DNA from: Clostridiales bacterium
GTDB lineage: Bacteria; Bacillota; Clostridia; TANB77; CAG-508
NCBI GenBank assembly: GCA_003525075.1
Contig: DQFO01000021.1
Location: 48,255-112,254, forward strand
Direction: 5' to 3'
Length of the DNA: 64,000 nt
The translations under genes and the position numbers were made by a program. The notes under the pieces were generated by a model. That model was given only the letters and a program-made list of their open reading frames with translations, did not search any database and was not told the origin of the DNA. Positions 8,901 through 44,830 of the stretch are shown here, piece after piece (the stretch's first letter is position 1; every line of letters begins with the position of its first letter).

Positions 8901-8932
8901 AAGGCAGGAGTTGTGCTCCTGCCTTTATTTTA
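8901..8932. terminator. bidirectional Rho-independent terminator between sspA (+) and the cpsB-like gene (-)
   Basis: Perfect 10-bp stem aaggcaggag/ctcctgcctt with a 5-nt loop, followed by a T-rich tract. Confidence 0.7.
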
Positions 8933-9638: not shown

Positions 9639-9659
9639 AAAATCCTTCCTTTAAATCAT

Positions 9660-15197: not shown

Positions 15198-15206
15198 TTA
15201 TATTTA

Positions 15207-17875: not shown

Positions 17876-17903
17876 TTAAAAGATGCAACATTATTTTGTT
17901 GCA
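17876..17903 (-). terminator. hairpin (terminator/attenuator) between the GH39-like gene and the HEPN-like gene
   Basis: Perfect 10-bp stem aagatgcaac/gttgcatctt with an 8-nt loop. It overlaps the GH gene stop and sits directly upstream of the RBS of the next gene. Confidence 0.5.
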
Positions 17904-22440: not shown

Positions 22441-22450
22441 TTTATCTCTC

Positions 22451-23632: not shown

Positions 23633-23643
23633 ATAATAATCAC

Positions 23644-24786: not shown

Positions 24787-24817
24787 TTTTATTTTATCCT
24801 TTCTAATTAAAGTACTT

Positions 24818-26995: not shown

Positions 26996-28194
26996 TTCTT
27001 CACCTGCTTAAAATATTTTTTATATAATACTTTTATTTGTTTCGGCATTATGTCTTTCAAAACATATTTTAGTTTGTTTTTATTTGCCAAATATTTTTTA
27101 GAATATTCCTCAAATGACATTTCATCTAATTGTTTATATATAATTTCTCTATTTTGTGGTCTTGTTGTAGGATGTTTTAAATTTCCGTTAAATTTAGTTA
27201 CTTGTTGTTCATTATATTGTCTATATTCAACAAGATTTTTTACTTTATTAAAAATTTTTTCACCTTTTATAGTATTAACAATTGCTAAAGATACTCCATT
27301 TTTGTCATAGAAGTCATAATCAAATTGTTCTATTCCCCATAAATCTCCTAAAGTAATGTCTCCAATTCTATCTAAATTTGCATATTTACATTCATAACAA
27401 CATTCTCTATTTACTTTTCCTTTTAAAAATGCCGTATAATATGGATCAAAATCTGCTTTCTTATATTTTATTTTGTTTTTAGTTTTTATTTCTGCACAAT
27501 ATCCCATTCCCCATGCAACTTTGCTCTTACTTCTAGCAGTATAACTAATTATTTTTTCTCTTAATTTTTTTTCTTCATTTTCTAAATATTTTTTAAATAT
27601 TTTCTGACTTGGTACACCATGGCATATAATATCTATTGTATAAAGATTTTCATAGTCTTTTTTTAAAAATTTTTTTAATCCTCCAATTTGACATGGTACA
27701 CCTATATATAATATTTTCTTTCCTTCTTCTAAAAATTCTTTTACTTGAGAAAATGTTTTTTTAGTATCACTTGTAACATATTTTGAGCCTCTTAATTGTT
27801 GCAATTCTTTTTTATCTTTTACGTATTTTTGATATGGCATTAAATTTTCATCATATGCACTTCCAAACACAATCCCATTTTCTTCTATAACCATTTTCGA
27901 TATAAGATATGCTATACCACCTGAAGTACTATTTTTTGCTATCTCTTTTTCTTTTGGTCTTACACCTAAGAATTTTCTTTCTTCTAAATTATTTTTATTA
28001 TAAAATCTATCAATTTGTCCACATGTTTTTTTACATAAACCACATTTTATGCATCTTTCTTCATCAACTTTTGGAGTTATAAATCCCTCATCATCTTCCT
28101 TCATACTAATTGCTTTTACTGGGCAAATTTGTTCACATGCTCTACAACCAGTACAGTCCTTTTTATTTAATATTTTTATAAATTTTTCTTCCAT
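26992..28194 (-). CDS. second F420H2-dehydrogenase beta-subunit-like 2x[4Fe-4S] protein
   Basis: CTGCRACEQICP and CIKCGLCKKTC motifs plus an FrhB-like body. Paralogous to 22451..23632. Confidence 0.7.
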   Translation of the reverse strand: MEEKFIKILNKKDCTGCRACEQICPVKAISMKEDDEGFITPKVDEERCIKCGLCKKTCGQIDRFYNKNNLEERKFLGVRPKEKEIAKNSTSGGIAYLISKMVIEENGIVFGSAYDENLMPYQKYVKDKKELQQLRGSKYVTSDTKKTFSQVKEFLEEGKKILYIGVPCQIGGLKKFLKKDYENLYTIDIICHGVPSQKIFKKYLENEEKKLREKIISYTARSKSKVAWGMGYCAEIKTKNKIKYKKADFDPYYTAFLKGKVNRECCYECKYANLDRIGDITLGDLWGIEQFDYDFYDKNGVSLAIVNTIKGEKIFNKVKNLVEYRQYNEQQVTKFNGNLKHPTTRPQNREIIYKQLDEMSFEEYSKKYLANKNKLKYVLKDIMPKQIKVLYKKYFKQVKK

Positions 28195-28206
28195 GTTTCC
28201 TCCATT

Positions 28207-29319
28207 TTAATCATTTAGTGCTTTATCTAAATATTCTGAAGCTTTTTTTCTTTCATCTTCTAACACTTTGTTTGCATGTTCAAAATTTATTGTTTTATCT
28301 GCTAGTTTTATATCATTATAATCTTCAACAATTCTGTCTTGTAAACCTGTTACTTCTAATATACTAGCTAATCTTGTACTAAACTTTTCTGGAAATATTA
28401 TCATAAATGGTGTATTAAAATTTATTGAAAAAGCTGTTGCGTGAAAAGAATCTGTAACAACATAACTTGCATTCGCTATTAAAGATAAAAAGTCTTCAAC
28501 TTTTACATTACATTTCATTTTACCTTTTTTGAAGCATTCATGTAAATTATAACTAATATAGTATATATCCAAATTTTTTTCTCTTGCTAGTTTTTCAACA
28601 TACTTATCAATTTTTTTATTTCTATTTAAATTGTACATTAATACATAATTTTTGCTATTATATTTTGATGAAGCTATCTTTAACCATTCTTTTTTATTTA
28701 GTAATAGTGTTGGGTCTAAAACATTTATTCCATCATTTCTTCCTAATTTTTTTAAAATATCTACTCCAGATATTTCTCTCATAGAAAGATATTGATATTT
28801 ATTAACTAATCTTCTTGTTTCTTCAACTTCTTCTGGAACAAGTGATTTTTTTCCAAAACTTGCAGCATAAGATATTCTTTTTTTATCATCTGGAACAAAA
28901 TCTAAGAAGAATGGATATTCTATTTTTTCATTCCATTCACTATTCCAAACTTGGTCACTTCCTGTACAATAGATATCTGCTTGTGGTATATTTTTTTCTA
29001 ACTCTTCTTTATTGTAATATGTTTTGTCTGTCATTTTTATATATTTTTTCAAGAATTTTTTAAACATTGAAAATCTTTGAACATATGACGGAAATATAAC
29101 ACATTGTGCTCCAAATCTCACAATTGGATTTTTTCTTAATATCTCTTTTTTATTTTTTAATCTTTTTAGCATTCCAAATAAATGTAATCTTTCAGGATAA
29201 TAATCTATTGTCTCAACTTCAAATCCTTTTTCTTTTATTTTTTCTTGTAATGCATATGTTTGTAAAACAGAACCATAATTTACAACCCTATGTAATGTGA
29301 TTATATCTACTTTTTTCAT
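28207..29319 (-). CDS. second polysaccharide pyruvyl transferase family protein
   Basis: HRVVNYGSVLQTYAL N-terminal motif of the PS_pyruv_trans family. Confidence 0.7.
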   Translation of the reverse strand: MKKVDIITLHRVVNYGSVLQTYALQEKIKEKGFEVETIDYYPERLHLFGMLKRLKNKKEILRKNPIVRFGAQCVIFPSYVQRFSMFKKFLKKYIKMTDKTYYNKEELEKNIPQADIYCTGSDQVWNSEWNEKIEYPFFLDFVPDDKKRISYAASFGKKSLVPEEVEETRRLVNKYQYLSMREISGVDILKKLGRNDGINVLDPTLLLNKKEWLKIASSKYNSKNYVLMYNLNRNKKIDKYVEKLAREKNLDIYYISYNLHECFKKGKMKCNVKVEDFLSLIANASYVVTDSFHATAFSINFNTPFMIIFPEKFSTRLASILEVTGLQDRIVEDYNDIKLADKTINFEHANKVLEDERKKASEYLDKALND

Positions 29320-29328
29320 TTTTTTCTC

Positions 29329-30390
29329 CTATCTTTTATTTTTTAATGAGTTAAATAATTTAGGTAATTTTTTCTTACAAAAAGCCAATCCTTTTCCCAT
29401 AATCATAGCTAATAACACTGATTTTATCCTATATGGTATTAATAATATTTTTACTTTTTTACTTTGAGGTTTCATTTTTTTGAGTTCTTCTCTTGTTGTT
29501 TCATCATATATAATTTGTTTTATTTTTTTGTATTTCTCTTTAAATGACATATTACATTCTTCATTAAATAAATTTTCGATACAACCTAATGTCCTTTCAA
29601 TATGTCTTCTAGCACAAAACTCTTCATAATTTGATTTTTCTATGCCGAATTTATCAAAATATTCTTTAAATTCTTGGTTTTCTTTTAATCTTATCTCATA
29701 CAAGTTTTTTATATATTTTCCTGTAATTGTAGTTCCTCTTCCTCTTATATAATGATAAAAACATTTTTGCATGTTAAAAAGAGTATTGACTTGTAATAAA
29801 TACTCTCTATTAAATTCAATATCTTCTCCCCAATTATAATCTGGAAATTTTATATTGTGTTTTTCTATAATTTCTCTTTTATACATTTTATTCCATATAT
29901 TGTATAGCAAATGTTTGTCCCATAAAGTCACAAAATCCTTTTTTATTTCTTCAATATTGGGATAATTTTTGTCATCGCAATATATCTCATCCATTTGTAC
30001 TTTTCCATCAATATCTTCTACTTCTGAGAAAAAACCAGAAACAATTAAATCAGGTTTATATTTTATATATATATCCATATAGGAATTCAGCATATCTTTT
30101 TCAATATAATCATCTGAATCTACAAAACATATAAACTCTCCAGTTGCTTTTTCAATCCCCATATTCCTTGCATTTGATACGCCCTTTTTGCTTTGAATAT
30201 AAAATTTTACTCTTTTATCTTTTTCTTGATACTTTTTACAAATTTCAGCAGAATTATCCGTTGACCCATTATCAATAAGTATTAATTCATAATTATTGTA
30301 CGTTTGCTCTAATATAGATTTTATTGTTTTTTCCAAATATTTTTCTGAATTGTATACTGGTATAATTACTGTTATTATATTTTTTTTCAT
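29329..30390 (-). CDS. glycosyltransferase family 2
   Basis: VIIPVYNSEKYLEKTIKSILEQTYNNYELILIDNGSTDNS and DSDD (DXD) motif. Confidence 0.8.
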   Translation of the reverse strand: MKKNIITVIIPVYNSEKYLEKTIKSILEQTYNNYELILIDNGSTDNSAEICKKYQEKDKRVKFYIQSKKGVSNARNMGIEKATGEFICFVDSDDYIEKDMLNSYMDIYIKYKPDLIVSGFFSEVEDIDGKVQMDEIYCDDKNYPNIEEIKKDFVTLWDKHLLYNIWNKMYKREIIEKHNIKFPDYNWGEDIEFNREYLLQVNTLFNMQKCFYHYIRGRGTTITGKYIKNLYEIRLKENQEFKEYFDKFGIEKSNYEEFCARRHIERTLGCIENLFNEECNMSFKEKYKKIKQIIYDETTREELKKMKPQSKKVKILLIPYRIKSVLLAMIMGKGLAFCKKKLPKLFNSLKNKR

Positions 30391-30406
30391 AAAAGCTCCT
30401 CTTTTA

Positions 30407-31477
30407 TTATACTGTTATTTTTTCATGTTCTTTTAAATCTTCATTTTTCTTTTTATTTATCCATTTATCTTTCAAGTAATGTGCAAATTTCACTTCAATA
30501 ATTTCATATGCAAAATTTGCTATAACCAAGCTAATAATAATAGCCAAACAAGCACATAAAATTGAAATAATATTAATTTCATTCATTGGATTAACAAACT
30601 TCTTAAAAACTAAAATCACATAATAATGTATCAAATAAAAAGAATAACTAATATTTCCTATTCTTAATAGTACATTAGGTGCTTTCAAGCTTTTAAAAAA
30701 TGCCGTTAAAAAGAATAGTACTACTATTCCTGATAATATAGCTCTTATAATTGGGTTAATCTTAGTAAAAACTACCATAAAAGAAATAATTCCTAATGCT
30801 ATTAGTATTTTTGATACAGCTATATTTTTTGTCATATTGAATGAATTATATTCAAAAAGTTTTTTAGCAATATAAAATAAAATTATTCCTATTATAAAGT
30901 CAATCATTCTAATGCTAGTCCAAACTCTAAGAGTTGCATAAGCTGATACATCAAAGAAATTTCCAATTAATATTAAAATCATTAATATTCCACAAGTAAT
31001 TTGTCCTCTTTTTTTATGATTAATTTTTGCAGAGATCCAAAATACTAAATAAAAAAACATTTCATTTAATAAAGTATGAGCTGGTCCAACTATTGGTCTA
31101 GTAACATCTATCGCTCTTATTGCATCTCTTGAATATGGTATAAAAAATAATGATTTCAATAATTCAATGCCATTTGGTCTATATGGAACTATTCCATCAA
31201 CAATATATGCTGCTCCAAAAGTTAAAATTGTTAAAATCCAGTATAATGGTACAATTTTTATTATTCTTTTTTTAGCATAATTATCCAAATTACTTTGGGT
31301 TGTATACATTATTATAAATCCACTAATAACGAAGAAAATATCTACTCCTATTGCTGTATTAATTTTTAAATTATAAATGAAATCAATATGATATAATGCC
31401 ACCATCAATGCCGAAATTGCTCTTAAAATTTGAATTCCATCAAATTTTATTCCAGAAAATTCTTTTGCGTTATTCAT
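30407..31477 (-). CDS. acyltransferase family 3 membrane protein (probable polysaccharide O-acetyltransferase)
   Basis: N-terminus GIQILRAISALMVALYHI plus about 10 TM helices. Confidence 0.75.
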   Translation of the reverse strand: MNNAKEFSGIKFDGIQILRAISALMVALYHIDFIYNLKINTAIGVDIFFVISGFIIMYTTQSNLDNYAKKRIIKIVPLYWILTILTFGAAYIVDGIVPYRPNGIELLKSLFFIPYSRDAIRAIDVTRPIVGPAHTLLNEMFFYLVFWISAKINHKKRGQITCGILMILILIGNFFDVSAYATLRVWTSIRMIDFIIGIILFYIAKKLFEYNSFNMTKNIAVSKILIALGIISFMVVFTKINPIIRAILSGIVVLFFLTAFFKSLKAPNVLLRIGNISYSFYLIHYYVILVFKKFVNPMNEINIISILCACLAIIISLVIANFAYEIIEVKFAHYLKDKWINKKKNEDLKEHEKITV

Positions 31478-31478
31478 T

Positions 31479-32171
31479 TTATCTAGCTCCTTCTTTCTTT
31501 AAAACTGACAATATAGTCTTGAAAAACACTTTTATATCCATTTTCAAAGATAAATTATCTATGTAATACAATTCCATTTCCATTCTTTGTTCATATGTAG
31601 TATTACTTCTACCATTGGCAGCCCAATATCCTGTTAATCCAGGAGTAACACTTAAAAATTTATCTTTATTTACTCCATATTTTTCCAACTCATCTGCCAC
31701 TACTGGTCTAGGTCCAATTATTGATAAATCCCCATTAATTATATTTATAAGTTGTGGCAATTCATCCAAACTTGTTTTTCTTAGAAATTTACCAACTTTA
31801 GTTATTCTTGGATCATTTGTCAATTTATAGTTTTCCTTATATTCTCTCATTTGTTCTGGTGTAAATGATTTTATTAATTCTTCTGCATTTATTACCATAG
31901 ATCTAAATTTATATAATTTTATAATCTTTCCATTTTTTCCAATTCTTTTATGTGCAAAAAAAACTGGTCCCTTTGAATCTATTTTTATTGCTATTGCAAT
32001 TATAGCAAATAATGGTGATAATAATATAAGTGCTACACTCGCCAAAATTACATCAATCACTCTTTTTATTTTTATATATACTTTTTTACTAATTTTTGTT
32101 TTAACATCGCTTTGGGTTCTTAAGCTTGTTGTTTCTATATTTTCTGTTGTTTCACCAGTTATAATATTCAT
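31479..32171 (-). CDS. bacterial sugar transferase (PF02397-type undecaprenyl-phosphate sugar-1-phosphate transferase, short form)
   Basis: KIDSKGPVFFAHKRIGKNGKIIKLYKFRSM...DELPQLINIINGDLSIIGPRP. Confidence 0.85.
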   Translation of the reverse strand: MNIITGETTENIETTSLRTQSDVKTKISKKVYIKIKRVIDVILASVALILLSPLFAIIAIAIKIDSKGPVFFAHKRIGKNGKIIKLYKFRSMVINAEELIKSFTPEQMREYKENYKLTNDPRITKVGKFLRKTSLDELPQLINIINGDLSIIGPRPVVADELEKYGVNKDKFLSVTPGLTGYWAANGRSNTTYEQRMEMELYYIDNLSLKMDIKVFFKTILSVLKKEGAR

Positions 32172-32985: not shown

Positions 32986-34023
32986 CTATTCCCCATAAAT
33001 AATATTTTTCATACTCTTACTAGCCTTTTGTAGATCACAAACATAATAATATATACCATTTATATTATCACCTTTTCCACCATCATCTTCTGAAGGAATT
33101 TGTTTTGATACAATATTATTCAAATATGAACTTGTATTTCCTAATACATCTGAAGCAATTCCCATACATTCAGAAACATTCAAATTTGTTTTTACCTCTG
33201 ATAATACACTATCACTCAAGCTCCAAAGTTGTGTTATACTCATTGTAGAAACCTTATTCATTACAGCTGTAAGAACATCTCTTTGACGTTCCTCTCTAGT
33301 AAAATCATTTCCAATAGTTCTATTTCTAGAATGTGTTAATGCTTGTTCACCTGTTAATTTTACTTTTCCATAACTTGACAATAATTGTACAGGTTTTTTA
33401 GTCAATTCATAAGATTCATGAACAAACTCATTTATATAATCTTTTTCTGCTTTACTTATATTTAATTCAATACCACCAATTTTATTTATAACATTTATTA
33501 ATCCTTTAAAATTAATAGTTACATATTCAGATATATTTAATCCAAAATTAGAATTAATTGTCTTTAATGCTAATTGTTCTTTTCCATATGCATAAGCATG
33601 ATTTATTTTTGTTTTTCCATGTCCTGCAACAGAAACATATGTATCTCTTGGAATACTTATTAATTTTATTGTTTTATCAACTTGATTTATTGATGCAATC
33701 ATTATTGCATCACTTCTACCACCATCTATTCCAAATAATGCTACATTTTTTATTTTTTCAAATTCTTCTTTACTTACATTATCAGATACTTCAGTATATA
33801 AATCTTCATTTACATCCAAATCACCTTTATCTAATTTATCAAAATTTATTTTTGATATTTTTCCAGCAACCATTCCAGTTCCAACACCTAATAATATTAC
33901 TAATAATATTAAAATTATTGCTACTATAATTCCAGCTATTTTTCCTTTTTTACCTTTTTGCTTTTTTTGATATCTTTTTCCACCTTTTGTTTTTCTTGTT
34001 TGTCCATTTTCTTCATCAATCAT
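32986..34023 (-). CDS. LytR-CpsA-Psr (LCP) family phosphotransferase
   Basis: N-terminal TM. VALFGIDGGRSDAIMIASINQVDKTIKLISIPRDTYV is the LCP core. Confidence 0.8.
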   Translation of the reverse strand: MIDEENGQTRKTKGGKRYQKKQKGKKGKIAGIIVAIILILLVILLGVGTGMVAGKISKINFDKLDKGDLDVNEDLYTEVSDNVSKEEFEKIKNVALFGIDGGRSDAIMIASINQVDKTIKLISIPRDTYVSVAGHGKTKINHAYAYGKEQLALKTINSNFGLNISEYVTINFKGLINVINKIGGIELNISKAEKDYINEFVHESYELTKKPVQLLSSYGKVKLTGEQALTHSRNRTIGNDFTREERQRDVLTAVMNKVSTMSITQLWSLSDSVLSEVKTNLNVSECMGIASDVLGNTSSYLNNIVSKQIPSEDDGGKGDNINGIYYYVCDLQKASKSMKNIIYGE

Positions 34024-35555
34024 TGTTTTACCTCCTTTTTTCTGAATAGTATATTTTTTATTATATTTATATAATATTTATATTCTTCTGTTCTCCCAGA
34101 TACTAATGTTATTATTATAACTGGTATTATTATAGCTACTACAACACTCAATACTTGTTCAGCAAATATATTACTTACTCTTATTAATTGATTTACTCCC
34201 ATTGTAATTCCAATTATAACTGTTGCATACAATATTGTTTTAATAAATTCTAAATAATAATCTTTTAATCTTTTATTAAATATTGGTCTATATACATATT
34301 TTGGATAACTATATAATAGTATTACTAAAGAACTTACTGCTGTACCTAAAAATATTCCTGCTAATCCACATATTTTTAATAATATTATTGACGCAACTAG
34401 ATTAACTACTGATTCTAATATTGGTACAAATCTATCTACATAAAATATGCCTGCTGCTTCTTTAAATGCCATAAGTGGTCTTCTCATTCCTTGAATGAAG
34501 AATTTTAATATTAATGAGATTAATATAAATTTTGATAATATATATTGTTCTCCAAAGAAAATCGTTATAAATGGTTCTATTGCACATGCCATTCCTGTTG
34601 CACCTATTATAAATATTACAAAATTAAGAAAATTTAGTTTTTTATAAATTTCATAATTTCTTTCTTTATTATTTTCTGTTAATAAATCACCTATACTTGC
34701 CGTAGCTGATAATAAAAATTGATTTAATATTGTTGTAATTGCTGAAAGTACTAAATTGTAATTTGAATAATAGGCAACTGTAACTAGTCCTTCAAAAAAT
34801 ACTGAAATCAATATTGTATCTGTACTACTTACAACAAATCCAGCTATCTTATGGAAAAATAAAGCTTTTATATTTTTTATAATATCATCTTTTGTTTCTT
34901 TATCTAATTCTTTTACATCTTTTTCATTTATATATGGATATTTTTTATCTGCAATTATATTTATCAGTACATTTTCTAATATTCTGCAACCTAGTTTAAT
35001 TAACAAAAATACACAATAATTATGTGTTAAATATAAAAATACTATTTGCAATCCATTCATTACTACTAAATAAATTAAATGAACTATATTTGTAAGATAT
35101 TCTTCTTGGTTTGCATATATTATTGATCTTTTATATGCTATTGTATATGAAAATATTACATCTGTTAAAAATAAGAAATATAGTAAGTATAAGTTTTGAA
35201 TTGTCTGTGTTTCTCCTACAATTTGTTTTAAAAATATACTAACAATAAGACCTATAGCCAGCATTACTATTATTATAATGCTATAACACTTTTTGTAAAA
35301 TTTCATTAATGATTTTATTTTTTCTTTATCTTTATTGGCTATTGGTTTATACATATTATATATGATTGCTGAACCTAATCCTAGTTCAGCAATTGATAAC
35401 ATTGACAATATACTTGTTAATACTGTGTTTAATCCTAAATATTCTTCCCCTAATGTTTTTAAAAATATTGATTGTACTACTACTCCTAATACTATATTTA
35501 GAGCATTACTTATTAGTGCAACTATAATATTTTTTGCCGATTTTTGTGCTCTCAT
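34020..35555 (-). CDS. second Wzx/MOP-family polysaccharide flippase
   Basis: 14 predicted TM helices and a PST-family N-terminus (KNIIVALISNALNIVLGVVVQSIFLKTLGEEYLGL). Confidence 0.7.
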   Translation of the reverse strand: MRAQKSAKNIIVALISNALNIVLGVVVQSIFLKTLGEEYLGLNTVLTSILSMLSIAELGLGSAIIYNMYKPIANKDKEKIKSLMKFYKKCYSIIIIVMLAIGLIVSIFLKQIVGETQTIQNLYLLYFLFLTDVIFSYTIAYKRSIIYANQEEYLTNIVHLIYLVVMNGLQIVFLYLTHNYCVFLLIKLGCRILENVLINIIADKKYPYINEKDVKELDKETKDDIIKNIKALFFHKIAGFVVSSTDTILISVFFEGLVTVAYYSNYNLVLSAITTILNQFLLSATASIGDLLTENNKERNYEIYKKLNFLNFVIFIIGATGMACAIEPFITIFFGEQYILSKFILISLILKFFIQGMRRPLMAFKEAAGIFYVDRFVPILESVVNLVASIILLKICGLAGIFLGTAVSSLVILLYSYPKYVYRPIFNKRLKDYYLEFIKTILYATVIIGITMGVNQLIRVSNIFAEQVLSVVVAIIIPVIIITLVSGRTEEYKYYINIIKNILFRKKEVKQ

Positions 35556-38167
35556 TAATTTTTCCTCATTTCATATTTGTTTATAATTATTTTTACTACT
35601 TGGTATCCACATATACACATAATCCATGCACCCCAAAACTGTGGTGTTATTATAAATTGCAAAAATTGTAATGCTTCTGCTCTTGGAATTATAAATATAT
35701 TTAATGTACTTATTAATACTATTGATGCTATAAAGGTGTTCTTTTTTAATAGTCTTGGAATTGCCATTAATAAATATCCTAAAATCAGGCTATATACAAT
35801 TACACCAATATATCCAAAGTCTGTATATGTTTCCAGTATAAATGATGATCCCCATCCATGTCCTTCTAAATAATCTTTTCTTGTTAAATATGATATTATA
35901 TGTGAATAACTACTTGATTCAAGTGCTTTTGTTACATTATTTCCTGTTGGTAATGGCTTTGTTTTAAATATTTTTTGTGATATTGTACTATATTTAAAAT
36001 AGTCAATAAAAGGCCCAAATGTATAATTATGGTTTGTTGTTGTTTTTATCTTATCTTTTATCTCATATCCTATGTTCAATACATCATAAGATACTCCTTG
36101 TGTATAGAAAAAGTCTCCAAATAAAGATATTATATTAGTTGTTGGTACTTCTTCATCTACTCTTGAATAATTATAAATTGCAAGTCCTATTATTGCTACT
36201 GGTATAAGTAATATTAAAGCTATTTTTTCGAATTTTCCTATCCATCTTTCTTTGTTATTCAAATAATCTCTTATTACAAAATATGAAAATATAAACAATG
36301 CTGATATAACAATAGGTGTTCTTTGCCCTATTAAAAATGTTGGGATATTATATATCATAAAAATTCCAACTGGTATTATTGCTTTCTTCTTACTTGGCAT
36401 ACATGCAAGGAATATACATAACATTATATCTGACATTCCTGCTAATAGTGTTATTATTGGATTAAATGTATTTTCATATGTTAGATAATATTCTACATAG
36501 TCTTTTCCATTCATATATATTAATTTATCATATTCTGTTATTATTGAAAAAATAGCACAAACCAAAAATAATACTAAAGCTATATTAGTAAATATTTTCT
36601 TATCTTTACATTTTGATTCGTTTGTATTTTCTTTTATATTTTCTGTAATTTTATTTTTCTTTTCAGAAATTCTACTTCCAATATATATTGAAAATGTTGC
36701 TATAAAAACTAATAAAAATACATGCTGTTGTGAATCTATTGAGAACTTTTCTATCCAGTTTATAGCTTTAAATATGCTTATAACTGGCTTGGCTAATAAA
36801 AATGTAAACATTGCTATATTAAATATTAATAAATATATTCTTTGACTTATATTTTTACTTGAATATATTATATTTAATATTACTCCTATTACATCTGTAA
36901 TTAATAATAAATACAAATTTTTAGTAAAAAAGCTTATTATAAATGCAATTACTGTAATTAACCAAACTGAATCTATATTATGCTTTTCAACTGGCAATTT
37001 TTCAATTTCTTCATATGTTCTCTTTGAATTTTCTGTATCTGTATAAATATAAAAATCTTTTGTTTTATTTTTATATTTTTCATTCATTTCAAAGTTACAA
37101 TTTACACTTTCTATTAGTTTGTTAATACATTCATCAACAGTATGTGTTACTTCTCCAAAACCATCTTCATAATTCCAATATCCTTCTGGTATATGATTTT
37201 TTCTAAATTCTTCATAATCAAATTGAAAATATTGTAATGGCTTTTTCATATATGCAAAATCAAATGCTACACTTGAATAGTCTGTTATTAAATATTTGCA
37301 CTCTCTTAATAGTTCTTGTATACTCTTTTCTGTTTTGTCAACTATCTTTATTCTTGAATTTGTAGTTATAAATTTATCTTTGTATGGAATCATATTATCA
37401 TGTAAACACATATATAATTCTAAATTTTCTTTTTCTAATAAGTCTGACAGTCTTGTATCTTTTATTAAATCTTGTATAGTTGAATAGTATTTTGAATCTA
37501 AAAATGCTTTTTCATCATTTTCAAATTGCTTTCTCCATGTAAACATCATTAAGATTTTATTGCTATTTTTTGACTCGTCTTTTAATAAATCATATCTGCA
37601 AAATCCTGTTTTTTTGGCATTTTCTTCATTATATCCTAACTCGTTTATTACAAAATCATATTCTTTGTTTCCTGCACAACAAAATAAGTCTACTTTACTC
37701 TCGTTTTTTAATAAACATTGCACTTTATTTTGTGTTATCCCATGTTGCAAAAATATTGATTTAAATCTATATATAAATGTTCCTTGAAAATTAAATACTA
37801 ATTCTGGAAATGGTAATCCAGAACCTATTTGCGAGCTTATATATTTTGTTGATGCTATTGTATATATATTGTGTTTTAAACTATTTTTATATAATAGATT
37901 TTTATTGTATTTTTTTAATTTATCATAATATATTGATTTTTTTGTTATTACATAATATATATCTTTTTTACTTTTATTTTCCATTGCATATTTAAAGAAT
38001 GCATATCCATTGTCTTTGGCATCATCACCATTTTCTGCTACTATCCATATATCCCTTTTTATCAGTCTTAATATCATTCCAGGTATAAAAGATATTAAAA
38101 TAACAAGCATTTCCAAGATATGTTTTGGTTTTATTTTTTTCAATTTGTTTAGCATTTGTCCCTCCAT
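35555..38167 (-). CDS. fusion protein: N-terminal TagB/TagF-like CDP-glycerol glycerophosphotransferase plus C-terminal polytopic Wzy_C/O-antigen-ligase-like domain
   Basis: LITDYSSVAFDFAYMKKP matches the TagF family signature. The C-terminal half has about 11 TM helices, and its extracytoplasmic loop YLEGHGWGSSF resembles the Wzy_C H..GxGxG motif. Confidence 0.6.
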   Translation of the reverse strand: MEGQMLNKLKKIKPKHILEMLVILISFIPGMILRLIKRDIWIVAENGDDAKDNGYAFFKYAMENKSKKDIYYVITKKSIYYDKLKKYNKNLLYKNSLKHNIYTIASTKYISSQIGSGLPFPELVFNFQGTFIYRFKSIFLQHGITQNKVQCLLKNESKVDLFCCAGNKEYDFVINELGYNEENAKKTGFCRYDLLKDESKNSNKILMMFTWRKQFENDEKAFLDSKYYSTIQDLIKDTRLSDLLEKENLELYMCLHDNMIPYKDKFITTNSRIKIVDKTEKSIQELLRECKYLITDYSSVAFDFAYMKKPLQYFQFDYEEFRKNHIPEGYWNYEDGFGEVTHTVDECINKLIESVNCNFEMNEKYKNKTKDFYIYTDTENSKRTYEEIEKLPVEKHNIDSVWLITVIAFIISFFTKNLYLLLITDVIGVILNIIYSSKNISQRIYLLIFNIAMFTFLLAKPVISIFKAINWIEKFSIDSQQHVFLLVFIATFSIYIGSRISEKKNKITENIKENTNESKCKDKKIFTNIALVLFLVCAIFSIITEYDKLIYMNGKDYVEYYLTYENTFNPIITLLAGMSDIMLCIFLACMPSKKKAIIPVGIFMIYNIPTFLIGQRTPIVISALFIFSYFVIRDYLNNKERWIGKFEKIALILLIPVAIIGLAIYNYSRVDEEVPTTNIISLFGDFFYTQGVSYDVLNIGYEIKDKIKTTTNHNYTFGPFIDYFKYSTISQKIFKTKPLPTGNNVTKALESSSYSHIISYLTRKDYLEGHGWGSSFILETYTDFGYIGVIVYSLILGYLLMAIPRLLKKNTFIASIVLISTLNIFIIPRAEALQFLQFIITPQFWGAWIMCICGYQVVKIIINKYEMRKN

Positions 38168-38409
38168 TAATAGAATATTTCATCATAATTATAATTCATA
38201 AAAAATTCTCTTGCATTTGAGAAATATTCCTTATAATTGTCTTTATTTAATAACTTTGATTCCCTTTTCATTTTTTCTGCTATATACTCATTTATTTTTT
38301 CTAAATAATGTGAATAATCTTTATAATTATCTAATTTTATTCTCCTATCATTTTTTGTTGTAATGCTACATATAATTTCAATGGAAATACAAATTTTGCC
38401 AATGCACAT
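38167..38409 (-). CDS. small hypothetical ORF. May be only a frame-shifted overlap with the GT2 gene 3' end.
   Basis: Its stop overlaps the start of the TagF-like gene (coupling-like). Its 5' portion overlaps GT2 38337..39302 in another frame. No homology recognised. Confidence 0.2.
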   Translation of the reverse strand: MCIGKICISIEIICSITTKNDRRIKLDNYKDYSHYLEKINEYIAEKMKRESKLLNKDNYKEYFSNAREFFMNYNYDEIFY

Positions 38410-39302
38410 TTTATAAAAATTCTCTTGCGCACAGGGAATTGTTTTAATATTGTATTAATATCTTGTCCATCCAAATTTTTTTTACATTTATTAATATTTT
38501 CTATTATTTCTTTTTTCAAATGTTTTTCTTTTATCAAACTATATGTTTTACTATATAGCAAATGCTCTACCATTCTTATATTTATTGATTTTTTATATTC
38601 TTGTGGTAATTGATTTTTAAATTTTTCATATGTTATATCATAAAAACTCAAATCTTCTAATCTATGGTTAGACGCTGAGTTTTCTCTTTGAAAATAGTTA
38701 TATAAACATTCATCTATATATACTATTTTTTGTGCATAAAATCCTGCAACAGGTATAACTGGCAATTCTTCACAGTTCTTTATTCCTACAGGATATTTTA
38801 TATTGTGTTCTACTAAAATTGATTTTTTTATTAATTTTGCCCAAGATGTTATTGGTAAATATGAAATACATGTTTCTTTGGTTATTTCTATATTATTAAA
38901 AGTATTATATTTTGCTTCTATTTTTCTTCCATCTTTATATGTTATATAATAACCTACAAATACAAAATCTGCACCATCTTCAACTTTTTCCATCATTTTT
39001 TTAGTTGCTTGCTTTTCATACCAATCATCTGAGTCACAAAACATTATATATTCAGACTTTGTATTTTCTATTCCTCTATTTCTTGAATATGATACTCCCA
39101 TATTTTTTTCATTTTCAAGAAGAATAATATTATTATATTTTTTTGTATATTCTTTTACAATTTTAGTTGATTCGTCTGTAGAACAATCATCTACTACTAT
39201 TATTTCATTTACTCTATATTCTTGTTCTAATAGTGAATCTAAACATCTTTTTATATATATTCCTGAGTTGTAATTAGGTATTATAACTCCAATTGTTTTC
39301 AT
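38337..39302 (-). CDS. glycosyltransferase family 2
   Basis: GVIIPNYNSGIYIKRCLDSLLEQEYRVNEIIVVDDCSTDES. DSDD motif. Confidence 0.8.
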   Translation of the reverse strand: MKTIGVIIPNYNSGIYIKRCLDSLLEQEYRVNEIIVVDDCSTDESTKIVKEYTKKYNNIILLENEKNMGVSYSRNRGIENTKSEYIMFCDSDDWYEKQATKKMMEKVEDGADFVFVGYYITYKDGRKIEAKYNTFNNIEITKETCISYLPITSWAKLIKKSILVEHNIKYPVGIKNCEELPVIPVAGFYAQKIVYIDECLYNYFQRENSASNHRLEDLSFYDITYEKFKNQLPQEYKKSINIRMVEHLLYSKTYSLIKEKHLKKEIIENINKCKKNLDGQDINTILKQFPVRKRIFIKCALAKFVFPLKLYVALQQKMIGE

Positions 39303-40304
39303 CTATTTTCTCTTCCTTTTCATAAAAAATCCCTTTACTATTCCCACAACAGTACCTATTCCATAAGCACAATGCAATACAAAGAAAATAAATGGGAGTA
39401 ATAAATAGCTAATACTAAATCCATTTTTTATTGTTATTAGTATAATATTTAATATATTAAATAACAAATATGCACTTGTTAATAAATATACAAATATTGG
39501 AACATTAACAAATGCCATTATTACAGAAAATAAAATTCCTAACACAAATAAAAATGGTACTAAATGATATATTGAAAAACATTTTGGACAATAATGTAAT
39601 GTTATTCCAATCCATTTTCCATTACCATATTTTTGTTTTATCATTCCTTTCAAATCACTTCTTGCATATCTATATGATTTAATATTGGGTGAAAGTAAAA
39701 ACTTATATCCTTTTTGTTTCATTCTATAATGCATTTCATTATCTTCTGTTCTTGCTAAATTTTCATTATATGGTCCAACATCATCAAATACTTTTTTTCT
39801 GTACATTGCAAATGCCAATGTACTTACATATTCTTTACTTTCTTTTCTTCTAAAATCTGCAATTCCACATCCAAATATAGATTCTTCTGCTATTAATAAT
39901 AATTTTTCTTTCCAATCATTATTTTGTGTTACACTTATACATTTTCCCCCAACAATGTTTTCTCCATTTTCAATCTCTTTAACATTGTTCCAAATAAAAT
40001 CTTTGTCAAAAAACGTATGTGCATCAACTCTTAGTACAACTTCTCCTGTAACTTCTTTTAATGCTACATTCCATCCTTTAGGTAAAGTTTTTCCTTTGTT
40101 TGTAAGTATTTTTATTTGATAAAAATCTTTTTCATTTTCTTTTTTAAATTCCTCAAAAACTTTTCTTGTTCCATCTGTTGATATACTATCAACTAATATT
40201 ACTTCTATATCTTTATGTGGATAATCTTGTTTTTTTAATGATTCTAAACTTTTATCCAAAAATTTTTCTGCATTATATGCTATTATTATAAAAGATACTA
40301 ACAT
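39303..40304 (-). CDS. glycosyltransferase family 2 with C-terminal TM helices (polyprenyl-phosphate glycosyltransferase-like)
   Basis: SFIIIAYNAEKFLDKSLESLKKQDY...VILVDSISTDGT, plus three C-terminal TM segments. Confidence 0.75.
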   Translation of the reverse strand: MLVSFIIIAYNAEKFLDKSLESLKKQDYPHKDIEVILVDSISTDGTRKVFEEFKKENEKDFYQIKILTNKGKTLPKGWNVALKEVTGEVVLRVDAHTFFDKDFIWNNVKEIENGENIVGGKCISVTQNNDWKEKLLLIAEESIFGCGIADFRRKESKEYVSTLAFAMYRKKVFDDVGPYNENLARTEDNEMHYRMKQKGYKFLLSPNIKSYRYARSDLKGMIKQKYGNGKWIGITLHYCPKCFSIYHLVPFLFVLGILFSVIMAFVNVPIFVYLLTSAYLLFNILNIILITIKNGFSISYLLLPFIFFVLHCAYGIGTVVGIVKGFFMKRKRK

Positions 40305-40313
40305 CTATTTCTC

Positions 40314-41012
40314 CTATCTTAATACTCCTATTACTGTATCTATACAAATTTTCAAATCATGTAAAACAGAAAACTGTTTTAAATATTCTAAATTATATTT
40401 CATTTTACCTGGTAAAACATCTTCAACATATGCCACATCTGTATCTTTACCAGCCTTTACTGCTTTGTCTAATATTTCATCTTCATCTTTATATTTTATA
40501 CTTGCAATTGATGTAACACCAGCAGGCATAAGTAATGTTGCCATCATTTCATCTGTATATTTGTCAACATATTTTTTTACTTCTGGTCTTGTTCCAACAA
40601 ATGTCATCTCACCTTTTAAAATATTTATTAATTGTGGTATTTCATCAAGTCTAACTTTTCTAATTACTTTTCCCACTCTTGTTATTCTAGCATCATTTCC
40701 AACTGTTACTAATGATCCTATTTTGTCTGCATTTTGTACCATTGTTCTGAACTTAAATATTTTAAATATTTTTCCATTTGTTGTAACTCTTTCTTGTCTA
40801 TAAAATACTGGTCCTTTTGAGTCTATCTTTATTAATATTGCTAATATTAATAAAATTGGTGAAAGTATTATTAATAAGACTAATGAAAAGAATATGTCAA
40901 ATATTCTTTTCATTACTAAACTAATTTTCTTTTTTGATATTATATCATAATATTCTTTCACTTTTTCATTTTTCATTTTTTCTGGTAATTTTTCATAATC
41001 TTTTAATATCAT
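40314..41012 (-). CDS. second bacterial sugar transferase (PF02397; PglC/WecP-like initiating phosphoglycosyltransferase)
   Basis: KIDSKGPVFYRQERVTTNGKIFKIFKFRTM...DEIPQLINILKGEMTFVGTRPE. Confidence 0.85.
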   Translation of the reverse strand: MILKDYEKLPEKMKNEKVKEYYDIISKKKISLVMKRIFDIFFSLVLLIILSPILLILAILIKIDSKGPVFYRQERVTTNGKIFKIFKFRTMVQNADKIGSLVTVGNDARITRVGKVIRKVRLDEIPQLINILKGEMTFVGTRPEVKKYVDKYTDEMMATLLMPAGVTSIASIKYKDEDEILDKAVKAGKDTDVAYVEDVLPGKMKYNLEYLKQFSVLHDLKICIDTVIGVLR

Positions 41013-41027
41013 TTTAAATTTTCCTTT

Positions 41028-42251
41028 TTATTTACCATATTCTTTTAAAATATCAACAAAATTTGTTATTACATATTTTGCTTCTTCATCTGTTAATAAT
41101 GAATATAATGGTAATGTTATTTCACATTTATAATAATCAAATGCATTTGGATAATTTTTTATATCAAATCCCAAATTTTTATATGCTGTAAGCATTGGTA
41201 ATGGCTTATAATGTACATTTGTTGCAATTCCTCTTTCTGCCATTTTTATTATTATTTCATTTCTTGTTTTTTCATCAATTCCTTCTACTCTTGTTATAAA
41301 TAGATGTCCTGATGATTTTGAATTTGTTTTTTCATCTTCATGATTTAATGTTTTTACTTGATGTCCTTTTAATGCATCTTCATATATTTTTATTATTTCA
41401 TGTCTTCTTGCTACTAATTGTGGATATCTTTTTATTTGTGCTAATCCCATTCCTGCCATTATATCTGTCATATTACATTTGTAAGCTGGTTCTACTATAT
41501 CATATTCCCATGCTCCTAATTGATTTTTATGTAATGCGTCTTTTGTTTGACCATGTAATGATAATAATTGGTATCTTTTATAAATTGCTTCATTATCAAA
41601 TTTATCATTTTTCTTCCATGTAACAGCTCCACCTTCTGCTGTTGTTAAATTCTTTACTGCATGGAATGAGAAACATGTAAAGTCTGCATATTCTCCTGCC
41701 ATTTTACCATTTCTCATTGCTCCAATAGCATGTGAACTATCTGCCATTATTGCAATTCTTCCTAATTTTTCTTGTAATTCTGATGATGGTTTAAATATGT
41801 TTGCTTTTTTCTCTACTATTTTTTGTATTCTATCATAATCACACATTACTCCACCAATATCTACTGGTATAATTACTTTTGTTTTTTCTGTTATTGCTTG
41901 TTCTAATTTGTCATAATCCATTTCGAAATTATCTTTTTGAATGTCTACTAATACTGGTGTTGCTCCAACATGGCATATTACACTACATGATGCTGTATAT
42001 GTATATGCTGATGTTATTACTTCATCACCAGGTCCAACTCCTAATACTCTTAATGTCATTTCCATTGCTGCTGTTGATGAATTTAAACATACTGTTTTTT
42101 CTGTTTTGCATAATTCTGTTATTTTTTGCTCAAATAATTTTGTTTTTGGTCCTGTTGTAATCCATCCTGATTTTATTGCGTCTATAACTTCCTCAATTTC
42201 TGCTTCACCTACATCTGGTGGTGAAAATCTAATGTTCATTTTATTTTCCAT
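41028..42251 (-). CDS. DegT/DnrJ/EryC1/StrS-family PLP-dependent sugar aminotransferase (PglE-like)
   Basis: LNSSTAAMEMTLRVLGVGPGDEVITSAYTYTAS plus the Lys-containing SFHAVKNLTTAEGG region. Confidence 0.85.
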   Translation of the reverse strand: MENKMNIRFSPPDVGEAEIEEVIDAIKSGWITTGPKTKLFEQKITELCKTEKTVCLNSSTAAMEMTLRVLGVGPGDEVITSAYTYTASCSVICHVGATPVLVDIQKDNFEMDYDKLEQAITEKTKVIIPVDIGGVMCDYDRIQKIVEKKANIFKPSSELQEKLGRIAIMADSSHAIGAMRNGKMAGEYADFTCFSFHAVKNLTTAEGGAVTWKKNDKFDNEAIYKRYQLLSLHGQTKDALHKNQLGAWEYDIVEPAYKCNMTDIMAGMGLAQIKRYPQLVARRHEIIKIYEDALKGHQVKTLNHEDEKTNSKSSGHLFITRVEGIDEKTRNEIIIKMAERGIATNVHYKPLPMLTAYKNLGFDIKNYPNAFDYYKCEITLPLYSLLTDEEAKYVITNFVDILKEYGK

Positions 42252-42282
42252 ATTTCAACATTCCTTCCTTCATTACAATTTC

Positions 42283-42322
42283 TTATTTATAATGAATAAA
42301 TTCTAATTATTGATTTAACTAG
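42283..42322 (-). terminator. intergenic hairpin (attenuator or terminator) between the dehydratase and aminotransferase genes
   Basis: 11-bp perfect stem aataaattcta/tagaatttatt with a ~16-nt loop. Confidence 0.35.
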
Positions 42323-42343
42323 AATTTATTCAATTATTGGTAT

Positions 42344-44284
42344 TTAAGTATTTGCTGTTGCTTCTACTTTTTGTGTGTTTTCATTTGTTTCCTTTTTTTC
42401 GTTAACAATCTTTTTATTAACTTCATCTGGCTCTTTATATGTTGGAACAACTTGTTTCATTACTTGTTTTACTTCTTCTTCAAGATTCATGTCATTATCT
42501 TTTATTTTACTTAATTTGTTTAGTTTACTTTCTAATTCTTCCATTCCTAAGTTCATTGGTTGTGATACAAAGATTTTATTATGTTTTGTTGCTGTTAATC
42601 CTTCTTCTGCCATTAATAATTCTTCATATAATTTTTCTCCTTCTCTTAGTCCTGTGAATTGAATTGGAATATCTACTCCTGGCTCATATCCAGATAATTT
42701 TATTAGGCTTACTGCTAAATCATAAATTTTTACTGGTTTTCCCATATCTAATACAAATATTTCTCCACCTTCTGCATATGTTATTGCTTGTAATATTAAT
42801 CCAACTGCTTCTGGTATTGTCATGAAAAATCTTGTTATATCTTTATGTGTTACTGTTACAGGTCCGCCTTCTGCTATTTGTTTTTTGAATAATGGTATTA
42901 CTGATCCATTGCTTCCTAATACGTTTCCAAATCTTACTGCAACATAGTCTGTTTTACTTACTTTATTTTTTGCTTGTATTATCATTTCACAAACTCTTTT
43001 TGATGCTCCCATTATATTTGTTGGGTTTACTGCTTTGTCTGTTGATATTAATACAAATCTTTCTACTCCAAATTCATCTGCACAATTTGCTACATTATAT
43101 GTTCCAAATATATTGTTTTTTATTGCTTCTAATGGGCTATTTTCCATTAATGGTACATGTTTATGTGCTGCTGCATGGAATACTAGTTTTGGTGAATATT
43201 TTTCAAAAACTTTTCTTAGTCTTTCTTTATCTCTTACACTTCCAACTATTGCTTCTATTTTTGTTTTTGGATAATGTGCATCTAATTCCATTTGAATGTC
43301 ATATAAATTATTTTCATATATGTCAAATATTATTAATTTTGCTGGATTGTATTTCATTATTTGTCTACAAAGTTCAGATCCTATTGATCCTCCTCCACCT
43401 GTAACTAATACATTTTTTCCTTTTATTAGGTCTGTAATGTTTTTATTATCAAGTTTTATTGTGTCTCTTCCAAGTAAGTCTTCTATTTCTACATCTCTTA
43501 AGTTATTCATTACTCCACCTTTTTTCATCATTTCTTCTGTACTTGGTAATACTCTTGTTCTTACTCCTGTTGTTTGACATATTTCTATTATATTTTTTCT
43601 TGATCTTTGTGTTATATTATCTATTGCTAAATAAATAATGTTTACATTTTTTTCTTTTACTATATCTGGAATATCATATCTTGTTCCTAATACTTTTACT
43701 CCTAGTATGCTTTTATTTAGTTTATTTTTATTGTCATCTATCATTCCAACAATATTATACTTATCTTTCATTGTGTTGTTAACAGCTAATATTATTTCTT
43801 TAGCTCCCATTCCTGCTCCAATTATTAATAAGTTTTCTATTTTGTTTGGTTCTTTTTCTGCATTTTTTGGTCTTTTTACATTTGACATTCTTGATAATAT
43901 TGATCTTCCAGCAATTCTATATAATACGAATATTCCTGATATGAATATTCCTGACAATATGTTTATTCTTGCTCCAAAATAATCGAATTTTAACATATTG
44001 CTTATTACTATCATTAATATTGTTGATAAAAATCCACTAATTAGATATTTAATGTAATCTTCTCCTATTTCATATCTTATCATATCCCTATACATTTGAA
44101 AAACATTTAAAAACACTTCATATACTAATACTGCAATACACATTTCTTTTGTAAATTCTAATAAATCTGTTATTTGTGTATTTAGGAATAATAATGATGT
44201 TACATAGCTTCCAATTACTACTATTACATCTATTAATACTAATGCTAAATGTCTATATTTTTTTGCTAAATTTATAATTTTCAT
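42344..44284 (-). CDS. membrane-anchored CapD/PglF/WbpM-type UDP-N-acetylglucosamine 4,6-dehydratase
   Basis: Four N-terminal TM helices. Rossmann motifs VLVTGGGGSIGSELCRQI and IIGAGMGAKE. SDR catalytic region. Confidence 0.85.
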   Translation of the reverse strand: MKIINLAKKYRHLALVLIDVIVVIGSYVTSLLFLNTQITDLLEFTKEMCIAVLVYEVFLNVFQMYRDMIRYEIGEDYIKYLISGFLSTILMIVISNMLKFDYFGARINILSGIFISGIFVLYRIAGRSILSRMSNVKRPKNAEKEPNKIENLLIIGAGMGAKEIILAVNNTMKDKYNIVGMIDDNKNKLNKSILGVKVLGTRYDIPDIVKEKNVNIIYLAIDNITQRSRKNIIEICQTTGVRTRVLPSTEEMMKKGGVMNNLRDVEIEDLLGRDTIKLDNKNITDLIKGKNVLVTGGGGSIGSELCRQIMKYNPAKLIIFDIYENNLYDIQMELDAHYPKTKIEAIVGSVRDKERLRKVFEKYSPKLVFHAAAHKHVPLMENSPLEAIKNNIFGTYNVANCADEFGVERFVLISTDKAVNPTNIMGASKRVCEMIIQAKNKVSKTDYVAVRFGNVLGSNGSVIPLFKKQIAEGGPVTVTHKDITRFFMTIPEAVGLILQAITYAEGGEIFVLDMGKPVKIYDLAVSLIKLSGYEPGVDIPIQFTGLREGEKLYEELLMAEEGLTATKHNKIFVSQPMNLGMEELESKLNKLSKIKDNDMNLEEEVKQVMKQVVPTYKEPDEVNKKIVNEKKETNENTQKVEATANT

Positions 44285-44480: not shown

Positions 44481-44830
44481 GGGGATGTAATGGTTTCGAC
44501 ATTATATCTGAAGCATGAATAGCGAGTAGTGGATTCTCGTTTGCCACTATAAAAACGGGAAATTAAATATAAACGCTGATAATACAGAATTAGCATACGC
44601 TGCTTAGTTGCAACGTCGCCTCTAAAAGTATCCCCACATATTTTTAGTTGGTGTCATTTAGTGGGAAACAAAGCTATTTTTTCTATGGAAATAGTGGGTA
44701 TTTAATAGATATATTTTTTAATCGCTTGTTTGTTTGTGGTTATTAGATGAATATTAAAAATAAACTGCACTCGGAGAAGTTTGTGTGAATCTTATAGTGG
44801 ACAGGGGTTCGACTCCCCTCATCTCCACCA
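44481..44830 (+). ncRNA. ssrA: tmRNA (transfer-messenger RNA)
   Basis: The 5' end GGGGATGTAATGGTTTCGACA and the 3' end GGACAGGGGTTCGACTCCCCTCATCTCCACCA form a tRNA-Ala-like acceptor/T-arm with encoded CCA. The internal tag ORF ends ...GCATACGCTGCTTAG (..AYAA*). Confidence 0.85.

Follow-up and report, generated by a model that had tools for sequence, protein, structure and literature searches.

A rare, conserved fusion of a TagF-type phosphotransferase domain and a predicted Wzy polymerase domain in a candidate teichoic-acid-like glycopolymer locus of a Clostridiales bacterium

The stretch of DNA analysed here (hereafter the window) comprises 64,000 nucleotides (nt) from a Clostridiales bacterium (GenBank assembly GCA_003525075.1, contig DQFO01000021.1, positions 48,255 to 112,254 of the forward strand) and carries, on its minus strand, a single gene whose product joins a TagF-type cytidine diphosphate (CDP)-alditol phosphotransferase domain to a predicted Wzy repeat-unit polymerase domain. 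The open reading frame (ORF) extends without interruption from 35555 to 38167 and encodes 870 amino acids (aa), as an earlier note made from the sequence alone had described. The length given there does not stand, however, because the second ATG (M5, nt 38155) has a GGAGG Shine-Dalgarno sequence 7 nt upstream and all homologs start at the equivalent methionine, beginning with MLxK; the true start is thus M5 and the product has 866 aa. The coding sequence accordingly occupies 35555..38155 (minus strand, 866 aa plus stop), and residue numbers used below count from the 870-aa mechanical ORF, which reaches 38167. Two strong Pfam matches cover the protein without overlap: PF04464 (Glyphos_transf) at aa 37-389 (37001..38059, minus strand) and PF14296 (O-ag_pol_Wzy) at aa 403-856, the latter within a Wzy domain assigned to aa 398-870 (35558..36976, minus strand; PF14296 and TIGR04370). 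They are preceded by an N-terminal hydrophobic anchor helix, recognised from hydropathy and AlphaFold2, at aa 14-36 (38060..38128, minus strand). The AlphaFold2 model of the whole protein reaches a predicted local distance difference test (pLDDT) score of 92.8 and a predicted template modelling (pTM) score of 0.82 and is confident across the domain junction. Both motifs quoted in the earlier note, LITDYSSVAFDFAYMKKP and YLEGHGWGSSF, are found in the product, at aa 292-309 and 766-776, respectively.

The N-terminal half belongs to the TagF family, as had been proposed. PF04464 matches it with 103.1 bits (cutoff 22.1; E 2e-29) over profile positions 13-366 of 367. A search of the PDB with the single sequence returned no match, and TagF and TarL were reached by profiles only: the family profile matches TarL (8VA1) and TagF (3L7I), and the profile alignment places H256 on TagF H584 and LITDYSSVAFDF on the TagF nucleotide-binding motif LITDYSSVMFDY. 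Using the AlphaFold2 model, Foldseek retrieved Cps3D (8QOY), TagF (3L7I), and TarL (8VA1) with E 1e-9 to 4e-9 and a probability of 1.00, and its neighbours also include Bcs3 (E about 1e-9); the model has the two-lobe Rossmann (GT-B-like) fold of TagF-type enzymes. H256 and the C-lobe motif TDYSS are invariant in two alignments (A1 and A4), and in 26 diverse homologs the invariant residues are H142, H256, R191, D193, R212, T295, D296, S298, S299, D303, and R383. Since the N-lobe aligned poorly, with no residue-for-residue alignment to TagF or TarL in the profile searches, we infer rather than read from an alignment that H142, which sits in FLQHGIT, equals the first catalytic histidine (TagF H444 and TarL H300). 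The domain is not a TarF orthologue, because it scores far below the cutoff of the TarF equivalog NF041712 (25.4 bits vs 550). It nonetheless looks catalytically competent, and a dead or purely structural transferase domain is ruled out by the invariance of the catalytic-signature residues.

The C-terminal half had been described as a Wzy_C (O-antigen ligase-like) membrane domain with about 11 transmembrane (TM) helices. That label has to be replaced: PF04932 (Wzy_C) does not match the fusion protein in Pfam even at E<=10, whereas PF14296 (336.9 bits vs a cutoff of 26.6; E 2.4e-100; profile positions 7-462 of 468) and the NCBIfam model TIGR04370, ‘oligosaccharide repeat unit polymerase’ (144.3 bits vs a cutoff of 40; E 5e-42), match near full length, in agreement with the polymerase-type domain that the earlier note had also considered. 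We take PF14296 and PF04932 to be members of the same Pfam clan. According to hydropathy, the positive-inside rule, and AlphaFold2 models, the Wzy half has 12 TM helices, with both ends inside, in addition to the N-terminal anchor helix, and a large extracytoplasmic loop of 120 aa (aa 665-784). R616, E779, D783, R829, and the glycines of GHGxGSS are invariant among 29 family members (alignment A2) and are predicted to lie at the outer face, which fits known features of Wzy active sites. The YLEGHGWGSSF loop is real, but its GHGxGSS core is a signature of a PF14296 subgroup and not the Wzy_C motif. Wzy proteins have been described as having 10-14 TM helices and a large extracytoplasmic loop with conserved charged residues (PMC12004945), and the 12 helices, the 120-aa loop, and the four invariant charged residues found here agree with this description. 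The genomic context is also that of a Wzy family, as the locus contains an initiating phosphoglycosyl transferase, glycosyltransferases, and a Wzx-like gene, all kept in relatives. The model of the Wzy half alone is confident (pLDDT 91.9, pTM 0.90), and a Foldseek search with it against solved structures returned nothing at E<=1e-3, which agrees with the statement in a 2025 review that the structure of a Wzy has never been determined experimentally. WaaL was absent among the matches listed for this search, and with PF04932 also missing, a Wzy_C/WaaL ligase identity was rejected. On these grounds, we interpret the membrane half as a polymerase of repeat units and not as a ligase. The ligase similarity on which the earlier note had made its proposal depend is thus lacking, and yet the coupling of cytoplasmic glycerol-phosphate addition to a membrane step still stands, with a polymerase and not a ligase as the membrane partner.

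The fusion is genuine, rare, and conserved, and both of its parts and the pathway are of kinds already known. On 19 contigs of ENA and Logan samples, a single gene in each case encodes the protein (P0001), identical from M5 on; its 90%-identity cluster has 714 member sequences. Seventeen further clusters (P0002-P0018) have both domains in the same order at 86-41% identity and, with the exception of the truncated P0010, with lengths of 852-888 aa. Among 1.84 billion representatives at 50% identity, P0153 (46% identity) is the only other one that matches both halves; the architecture is therefore rare, although it is retained in 18 other clusters (P0002-P0018 and P0153) down to 41% identity. A frameshift or assembly artefact that falsely joins two genes, which the earlier note had named as fatal to its idea, is ruled out by the 19 contigs and 18 clusters. 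No member of the fusion family has been given a name in any source, and full-text literature searches retrieved no relevant description of a Wzy-glycerophosphotransferase fusion (one match used ‘fused’ for cloning constructs); the only fusions mentioned in a 2025 review on Wzy enzymes are reporter fusions.

The segment preceding the transferase core (aa 14-36; ILEMLVILISFIPGMILRL) has a hydropathy of 2.18, is rich in Lys/Arg on both flanks, contains a near-invariant proline (P29), and is helical in the AlphaFold2 model. Ahead of the glycerophosphotransferase (GPT) core, the same hydrophobic segment recurs in bifunctional GT2-GPT proteins, flanked there by two nucleotide-dependent cytoplasmic domains, and in a reversed fusion (P0019) it follows the inside-facing C-terminus of Wzy. 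Because of these flanking inside-facing parts, the segment cannot span the membrane in either type of protein, and for that reason it would be a non-spanning, monotopic or re-entrant anchor in the fusion as well, with the transferase in the cytoplasm. At its other end, the transferase is joined to TM1 of Wzy by only about 8 residues.

The fusion gene lies in a compact locus (locus A) in which all genes are on the minus strand and follow the order dehydratase, DegT, phosphoglycosyl transferase, GT2, GT2, fusion, Wzx-like, LCP. The first gene (42344..44284) encodes a PglF/CapD-type membrane-anchored UDP-N-acetylhexosamine (UDP-HexNAc) 4,6-dehydratase (PF02719, E 3e-127) and is followed by genes for a DegT-family sugar 4-aminotransferase (41028..42251; PF01041, E 4e-94; the best NCBIfam match is PseC-like and below cutoff) and a small PglC-type initiating phosphoglycosyl transferase, Bac_transf (40314..41012; PF02397, E 2e-60). 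Two GT2 glycosyltransferases come next: GT2a, with a C-terminal membrane segment (39303..40304; PF00535, E 7e-28), which is syntenic in relatives, and GT2b (38337..39302; PF00535, E 1e-37), which is syntenic in L001-L005 and L056. Downstream of the fusion gene lie genes for a divergent Wzx-like (MOP) flippase of 511 aa (34020..35555; NF041503 WZX_like, E 8e-11) and an LCP (LytR-CpsA-Psr) glycopolymer-to-peptidoglycan transferase (32986..34023; PF03816, E 2e-37; TIGR00350, 102 bits vs 62). The stops and starts of the last three genes overlap: the flippase start codon overlaps the fusion stop codon by 1 nt, and an ATGA overlap joins the LCP gene to the flippase gene. The NF041503 match of the flippase is full length but below the curated cutoff (42 bits vs 300); the protein matches the Wzx of locus B, the adjoining locus described below, by BLASTP (E 3e-5), and its gene always follows the fusion gene in relatives. 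A complete Wzy-dependent teichoic-acid gene set is thus contained within 32986-44284, with a weak flippase match and with a transferase that is TagF-type instead of LicD-type. The earlier placement of the fusion in an LCP-containing gene set is correct, and the LCP ligase fits the accompanying idea of a wall-linked polymer containing polyol phosphate. Pfam annotation of the locus revealed no acetyltransferase, so the 4-amino sugar may stay unacetylated. Locus A is kept in four contigs with the identical protein and in the genomes of five further species-level uncultured Clostridia/Eubacteriales of the gut (L001-L005), and the same gene order surrounds P0017 (42% identity).

A search for donor synthesis genes gave a negative result. 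Pfam scans of all ORFs of at least 150 aa detected no tagD or tarI/J in the 64-kb window, nor any PF01467 or IspD-type protein, and no tblastn match to B. subtilis TagD was better than E 1.9 there or reached E<=0.1 in loci L001-L055 (the neighbourhoods of relatives being covered within 10 kb). The TagD probe itself is valid, as it matches PDB 1COZ at E 1e-85, and the earlier statement that tagD is missing from the window therefore holds. The donor is not readable from sequence, because members of the family use CDP-glycerol or CDP-ribitol; CDP-glycerol is most likely, with its synthesis gene outside the window.

Several further features were observed in and around locus A. Between GT2b and the ribosome-binding site of the fusion lies a 169-nt AT-rich stretch (38168-38336), in which a spurious 80-aa ORF has its tail. 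In L001, by comparison, GT2b ends with a stop codon that directly abuts the ATG GAG GAA at the head of the fusion ORF. The 80-aa ORF (38167-38409) overlaps the 3' end of the GT2 gene and the 169-nt stretch missing from L001, no gene caller predicts it in four identical loci, and it was treated as non-coding or a relic; the stretch itself could be a remnant or a small insert with a regulatory role. In L005 (5171-8804), and also in L003, L004, and the neighbours of P0017, an MBOAT acyltransferase gene is accompanied by genes for two proteins of about 350 aa with no Pfam match. This cassette sits between GT2b and the fusion gene or beside the locus; the window does not contain it. Judging from this cassette, the polymer may be O-acylated (acetylated or alanylated) in the species that carry it. 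A tmRNA gene lies directly upstream of locus A (44481-44830, plus strand), and near the end of the window a large serine recombinase gene (61344-63125, minus strand) adjoins tRNA-Thr (63710-63785, minus strand); the tmRNA gene or the recombinase/tRNA-Thr pair could mark an integration site.

The relatives of the two halves point to the origin of the fusion. In the trees of both domains, all GPT-Wzy fusions form one clade, and their nearest neighbours, P0154 and the L056 Wzy, come from split loci as separate genes. P0154, the closest stand-alone GPT (about 50-51% identity), is part of the fully syntenic split locus L056, which has the order DegT, phosphoglycosyl transferase, GT2, GT2, GPT, GT4, Wzy, Wzx-like, LCP. 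Of 42 loci with unfused relatives of the Wzy half, L033 alone has a GPT gene within 10 kb, in the order GPT, GT4, GT4, Wzy. The Wzy proteins of L056 and L033 are 38-48% identical to the Wzy half of the fusion, and the nearest stand-alone GPT relatives are single-domain enzymes of about 390 aa encoded in Wzx/Wzy loci. Because the closest relatives are split loci ordered GPT-GT4-Wzy, the intervening GT4 gene was probably lost, followed by an in-frame join, in a single event that has been retained since. In L056 (5211-7680), the GT4 gene between GPT and Wzy is frameshifted, a split that is called alike in a second assembly (L057), and the C-terminus of Wzy continues in another frame; this locus may be decaying, or an error may be common to both assemblies.

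Fusions of similar content have also arisen outside this clade. P0019 has the reverse order, Wzy-GPT, with a GPT from another subgroup, and is encoded beside dltC/dltD. P0029 and P0079 are Wzy_C-GPT proteins with a PF04932 membrane domain, while P0025, P0036, and P0108, which include a Candidatus Saccharibacteria protein, have the architecture GPT-Wzy_C-GT2; L054 (8729-11236) is listed with the Glyphos_transf-Wzy_C fusions. Moreover, PF14296 Wzy is fused C-terminally to a pyruvyl transferase (P0157), to a GT4 (P0209), and to several domains of 160-380 aa with no Pfam match; P0159, P0172, P0165, P0191, P0205, and P0181 are among the PF14296 Wzy proteins with C-terminal fusions. These fusions are scattered over the Wzy tree, which indicates many independent fusions to cytoplasmic tailoring enzymes. 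Two other proteins, P0046 and P0099, have about 500 unannotated N-terminal residues ahead of the GPT domain.

We consider it likely that the fusion acts as a bifunctional enzyme in a pathway that depends on Wzx/Wzy, ends with an LCP step, and yields a teichoic-acid-like wall glycopolymer. In this pathway, the dehydratase and the aminotransferase would make UDP-4-amino-4,6-dideoxy-HexNAc, the small phosphoglycosyl transferase would load the amino sugar onto undecaprenyl phosphate, and the two GT2 enzymes would add two sugars. The TagF-type domain, presumably held at the membrane's cytoplasmic side by its hydrophobic helix and the 8-residue tether to Wzy TM1, would then add one polyol phosphate from CDP-alditol to the lipid-linked repeat unit. 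Upon flipping by the translationally coupled Wzx-like protein, the units would be polymerised at the outer face by the 12-TM Wzy domain, and the LCP enzyme would link the polymer to peptidoglycan. The chances are roughly even that the polyol phosphate is added last and serves as the polymerisation acceptor, which would place phosphodiesters in the backbone and make the product a true teichoic acid. Such an acceptor role is favoured because GPT is the last transferase in the gene order of the fused clade and because GPT-polymerase fusions recur; if it is correct, the fusion would hold the polymerase and the maker of its acceptor in one polypeptide.

Several points weigh against this proposal. 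No gene for the synthesis of CDP-glycerol or CDP-ribitol is linked to the fusion, so that the donor is assigned solely by family membership, and CDP-ribitol is the donor of two members of this family, TarL and Bcs3. The match behind the flippase assignment is weak, and the trees of both domains are neighbour-joining trees without bootstrap support. The N-terminal helix is hydrophobic all round and continuous in the model, and a true membrane span with the N-terminus outside is possible; a spanning helix of this orientation would likewise leave the transferase inside. Finally, sequence does not tell which acceptor receives the polyol phosphate or where in the unit it sits, and the GT4 genes found between GPT and Wzy in L033 and L056 imply that the ancestral phosphate was probably not terminal.

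In the main alternative, the phosphate is pendant on an internal sugar and Wzy joins sugar to sugar, the fusion being without catalytic meaning and a matter of co-inheritance or of 1:1 expression. We regard this as unlikely, although it is not without precedent: in pneumococcal Wzy-dependent capsule loci, gct and the glycerol phosphotransferase gene wchX are present as separate genes, and these capsules carry glycerol phosphate (PMC1391919). The GT4 genes in the split relatives are in line with it, and so are the fusions of Wzy to a pyruvyl transferase and to a GT4, which fit a general benefit of linkage or co-inheritance. However, GPT and polymerase-type domains have been fused independently in four architectures, which speaks for a specific link of this modification to polymerisation, and the gene order of the fused clade has GPT as its final transferase, directly before Wzy. 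It is far less probable that, like TagF or TarL, the transferase polymerises glycerol phosphate processively, with the Wzy-like domain acting as a membrane anchor, exporter, or ligase for the resulting chain. The closest solved structures (TagF, TarL, and Cps3D) are indeed those of processive polymerases, but the Pfam scans detected no TagGH-type ABC exporter in the window, a Wzx-like flippase gene is translationally coupled to the fusion gene, and the nearest stand-alone GPTs are single-domain proteins of about 390 aa in Wzx/Wzy loci; in addition, the membrane half matches PF14296 and TIGR04370 near full length, conserves its predicted outer-face residues, and has neither a Wzy_C match at E<=10 nor WaaL among its listed structural matches. 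That the gene is a frameshift join of two genes or carries a dead structural transferase domain is hardly credible, since nothing except the frameshifted genes of the split relative L056 speaks for it, and the 19 identical contigs, the 18 clusters down to 41% identity, the invariant catalytic residues, and the confident model of the junction all speak against it.

The preferred bifunctional, Wzx/Wzy-dependent pathway may be compared with known systems. In the pneumococcus, type IV teichoic acid has an AATGal-initiated unit and ribitol phosphate within the chain; assembly of the unit, flipping by TacF, polymerisation by TarP, and attachment by the LCP protein LytR are the work of separate proteins (PMC12017771). 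The pathway proposed here would resemble it in starting from a 4-amino-4,6-dideoxy-HexNAc on undecaprenyl pyrophosphate, in the cytoplasmic addition of a polyol phosphate, and, judging from the genes, in MOP-family flipping, block polymerisation outside the cell, and LCP attachment; the combination of an amino sugar with phosphate would give a polyampholyte in both cases. It differs in having a transferase of the TagF type and in the covalent joining of this enzyme to the polymerase. Pneumococcal polyol phosphate is transferred by enzymes of the LicD family, which are not TagF-type. For the teichoic-acid decorations of the Enterococcus EPA, a Wzx/Wzy route has been proposed, with LicD-family transfer and separate proteins (PMC7188991). 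The gct/wchX capsules would share with the present pathway the addition of glycerol phosphate to a repeat unit that is later polymerised by Wzy; unlike locus A, to which no such gene is linked, their loci contain gct, the CDP-glycerol synthase gene.

As for the individual halves, the fold and active-site signature of aa 37-389 are those of TagF/TarL/TagB-type enzymes (3L7I, 8VA1, 8QOY, and 8A0M), which are likewise peripheral at the membrane's cytoplasmic side. In contrast to the fusion, these enzymes serve ABC-transporter-dependent pathways and are fused, if ever, to soluble glycosyltransferase or tetratricopeptide repeat domains, and not to a polytopic polymerase. Like WaaL and Wzy_C proteins, the membrane half is a polytopic membrane enzyme predicted to act at the outer face on glycans linked to undecaprenyl pyrophosphate, but PF04932 is silent and the true Wzy_C-GPT fusions are other proteins. 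The split loci L056 and L033 and the stand-alone PF14296 proteins share the Wzy family and the neighbouring genes, and in these loci GPT and Wzy are encoded apart, one or two GT4 genes intervening.

Other parts of the window are also occupied by genes for surface glycans. A second Wzx/Wzy-type locus (21028-32171) adjoins locus A and encodes Bac_transf, an acyltransferase, GT2, GT4, an EpsG-type polymerase, and Wzx, together with two pairs of a polysaccharide pyruvyl transferase and an FrhB/FdhB-like iron-sulfur protein. Its content differs in one of the four contigs with the identical fusion (L049, 15985-22601), and it therefore looks strain-variable, whereas locus A is conserved. Directly downstream of it, a 1042-aa protein with a C-terminal type I dockerin is encoded (17891-21019). 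About 10 kb beyond the second locus lies a regulatory module of CpsC (Wzz), CpsD (tyrosine kinase-like ATPase), and CpsB (phosphatase) genes (8925-11299), with a sortase gene (12189-12815) and several ORFs with no Pfam match nearby. An AAA_21 ATPase (444 aa) gene adjoins one for an RloB-like protein (219 aa) at 14538-16541, a pair that resembles an abortive-infection or anti-phage module.

Wzy is central to the synthesis of most bacterial surface polysaccharides, and its protein contacts are unsettled. From the maintenance of this fusion and the recurrence of similar ones, one would expect Wzy to work jointly with the last modifying enzyme in the cytoplasm, or the two to be selected together. 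The fusion also points to the Wzx/Wzy route, and not TagF/TagGH, as the source of a teichoic-acid-like polymer in uncultured gut Clostridia; this polymer may be zwitterionic, which is relevant to interactions with the host immune system. The soluble domain of 45 kDa is, moreover, a possible handle for the purification of Wzy and for its analysis by electron cryomicroscopy (cryo-EM). As the components and the logic of the pathway are all known already, existing knowledge is refined and not overturned. A bolder idea, to which we give rather less than even chances, is that Wzy polymerases generally contact the last cytoplasmic tailoring enzyme and that, in the present case, the chain is transferred onto the glycerol-phosphate terminus made by the polymerase's own partner domain. 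If this is true, the fusion would be the most tractable natural Wzy for cryo-EM, and its product would be a Wzy-dependent true teichoic acid with backbone phosphodiesters, made zwitterionic by an unacetylated 4-amino sugar, so that a zwitterionic polymer would be displayed on the surface of a prevalent uncultured lineage of human-gut Clostridia.

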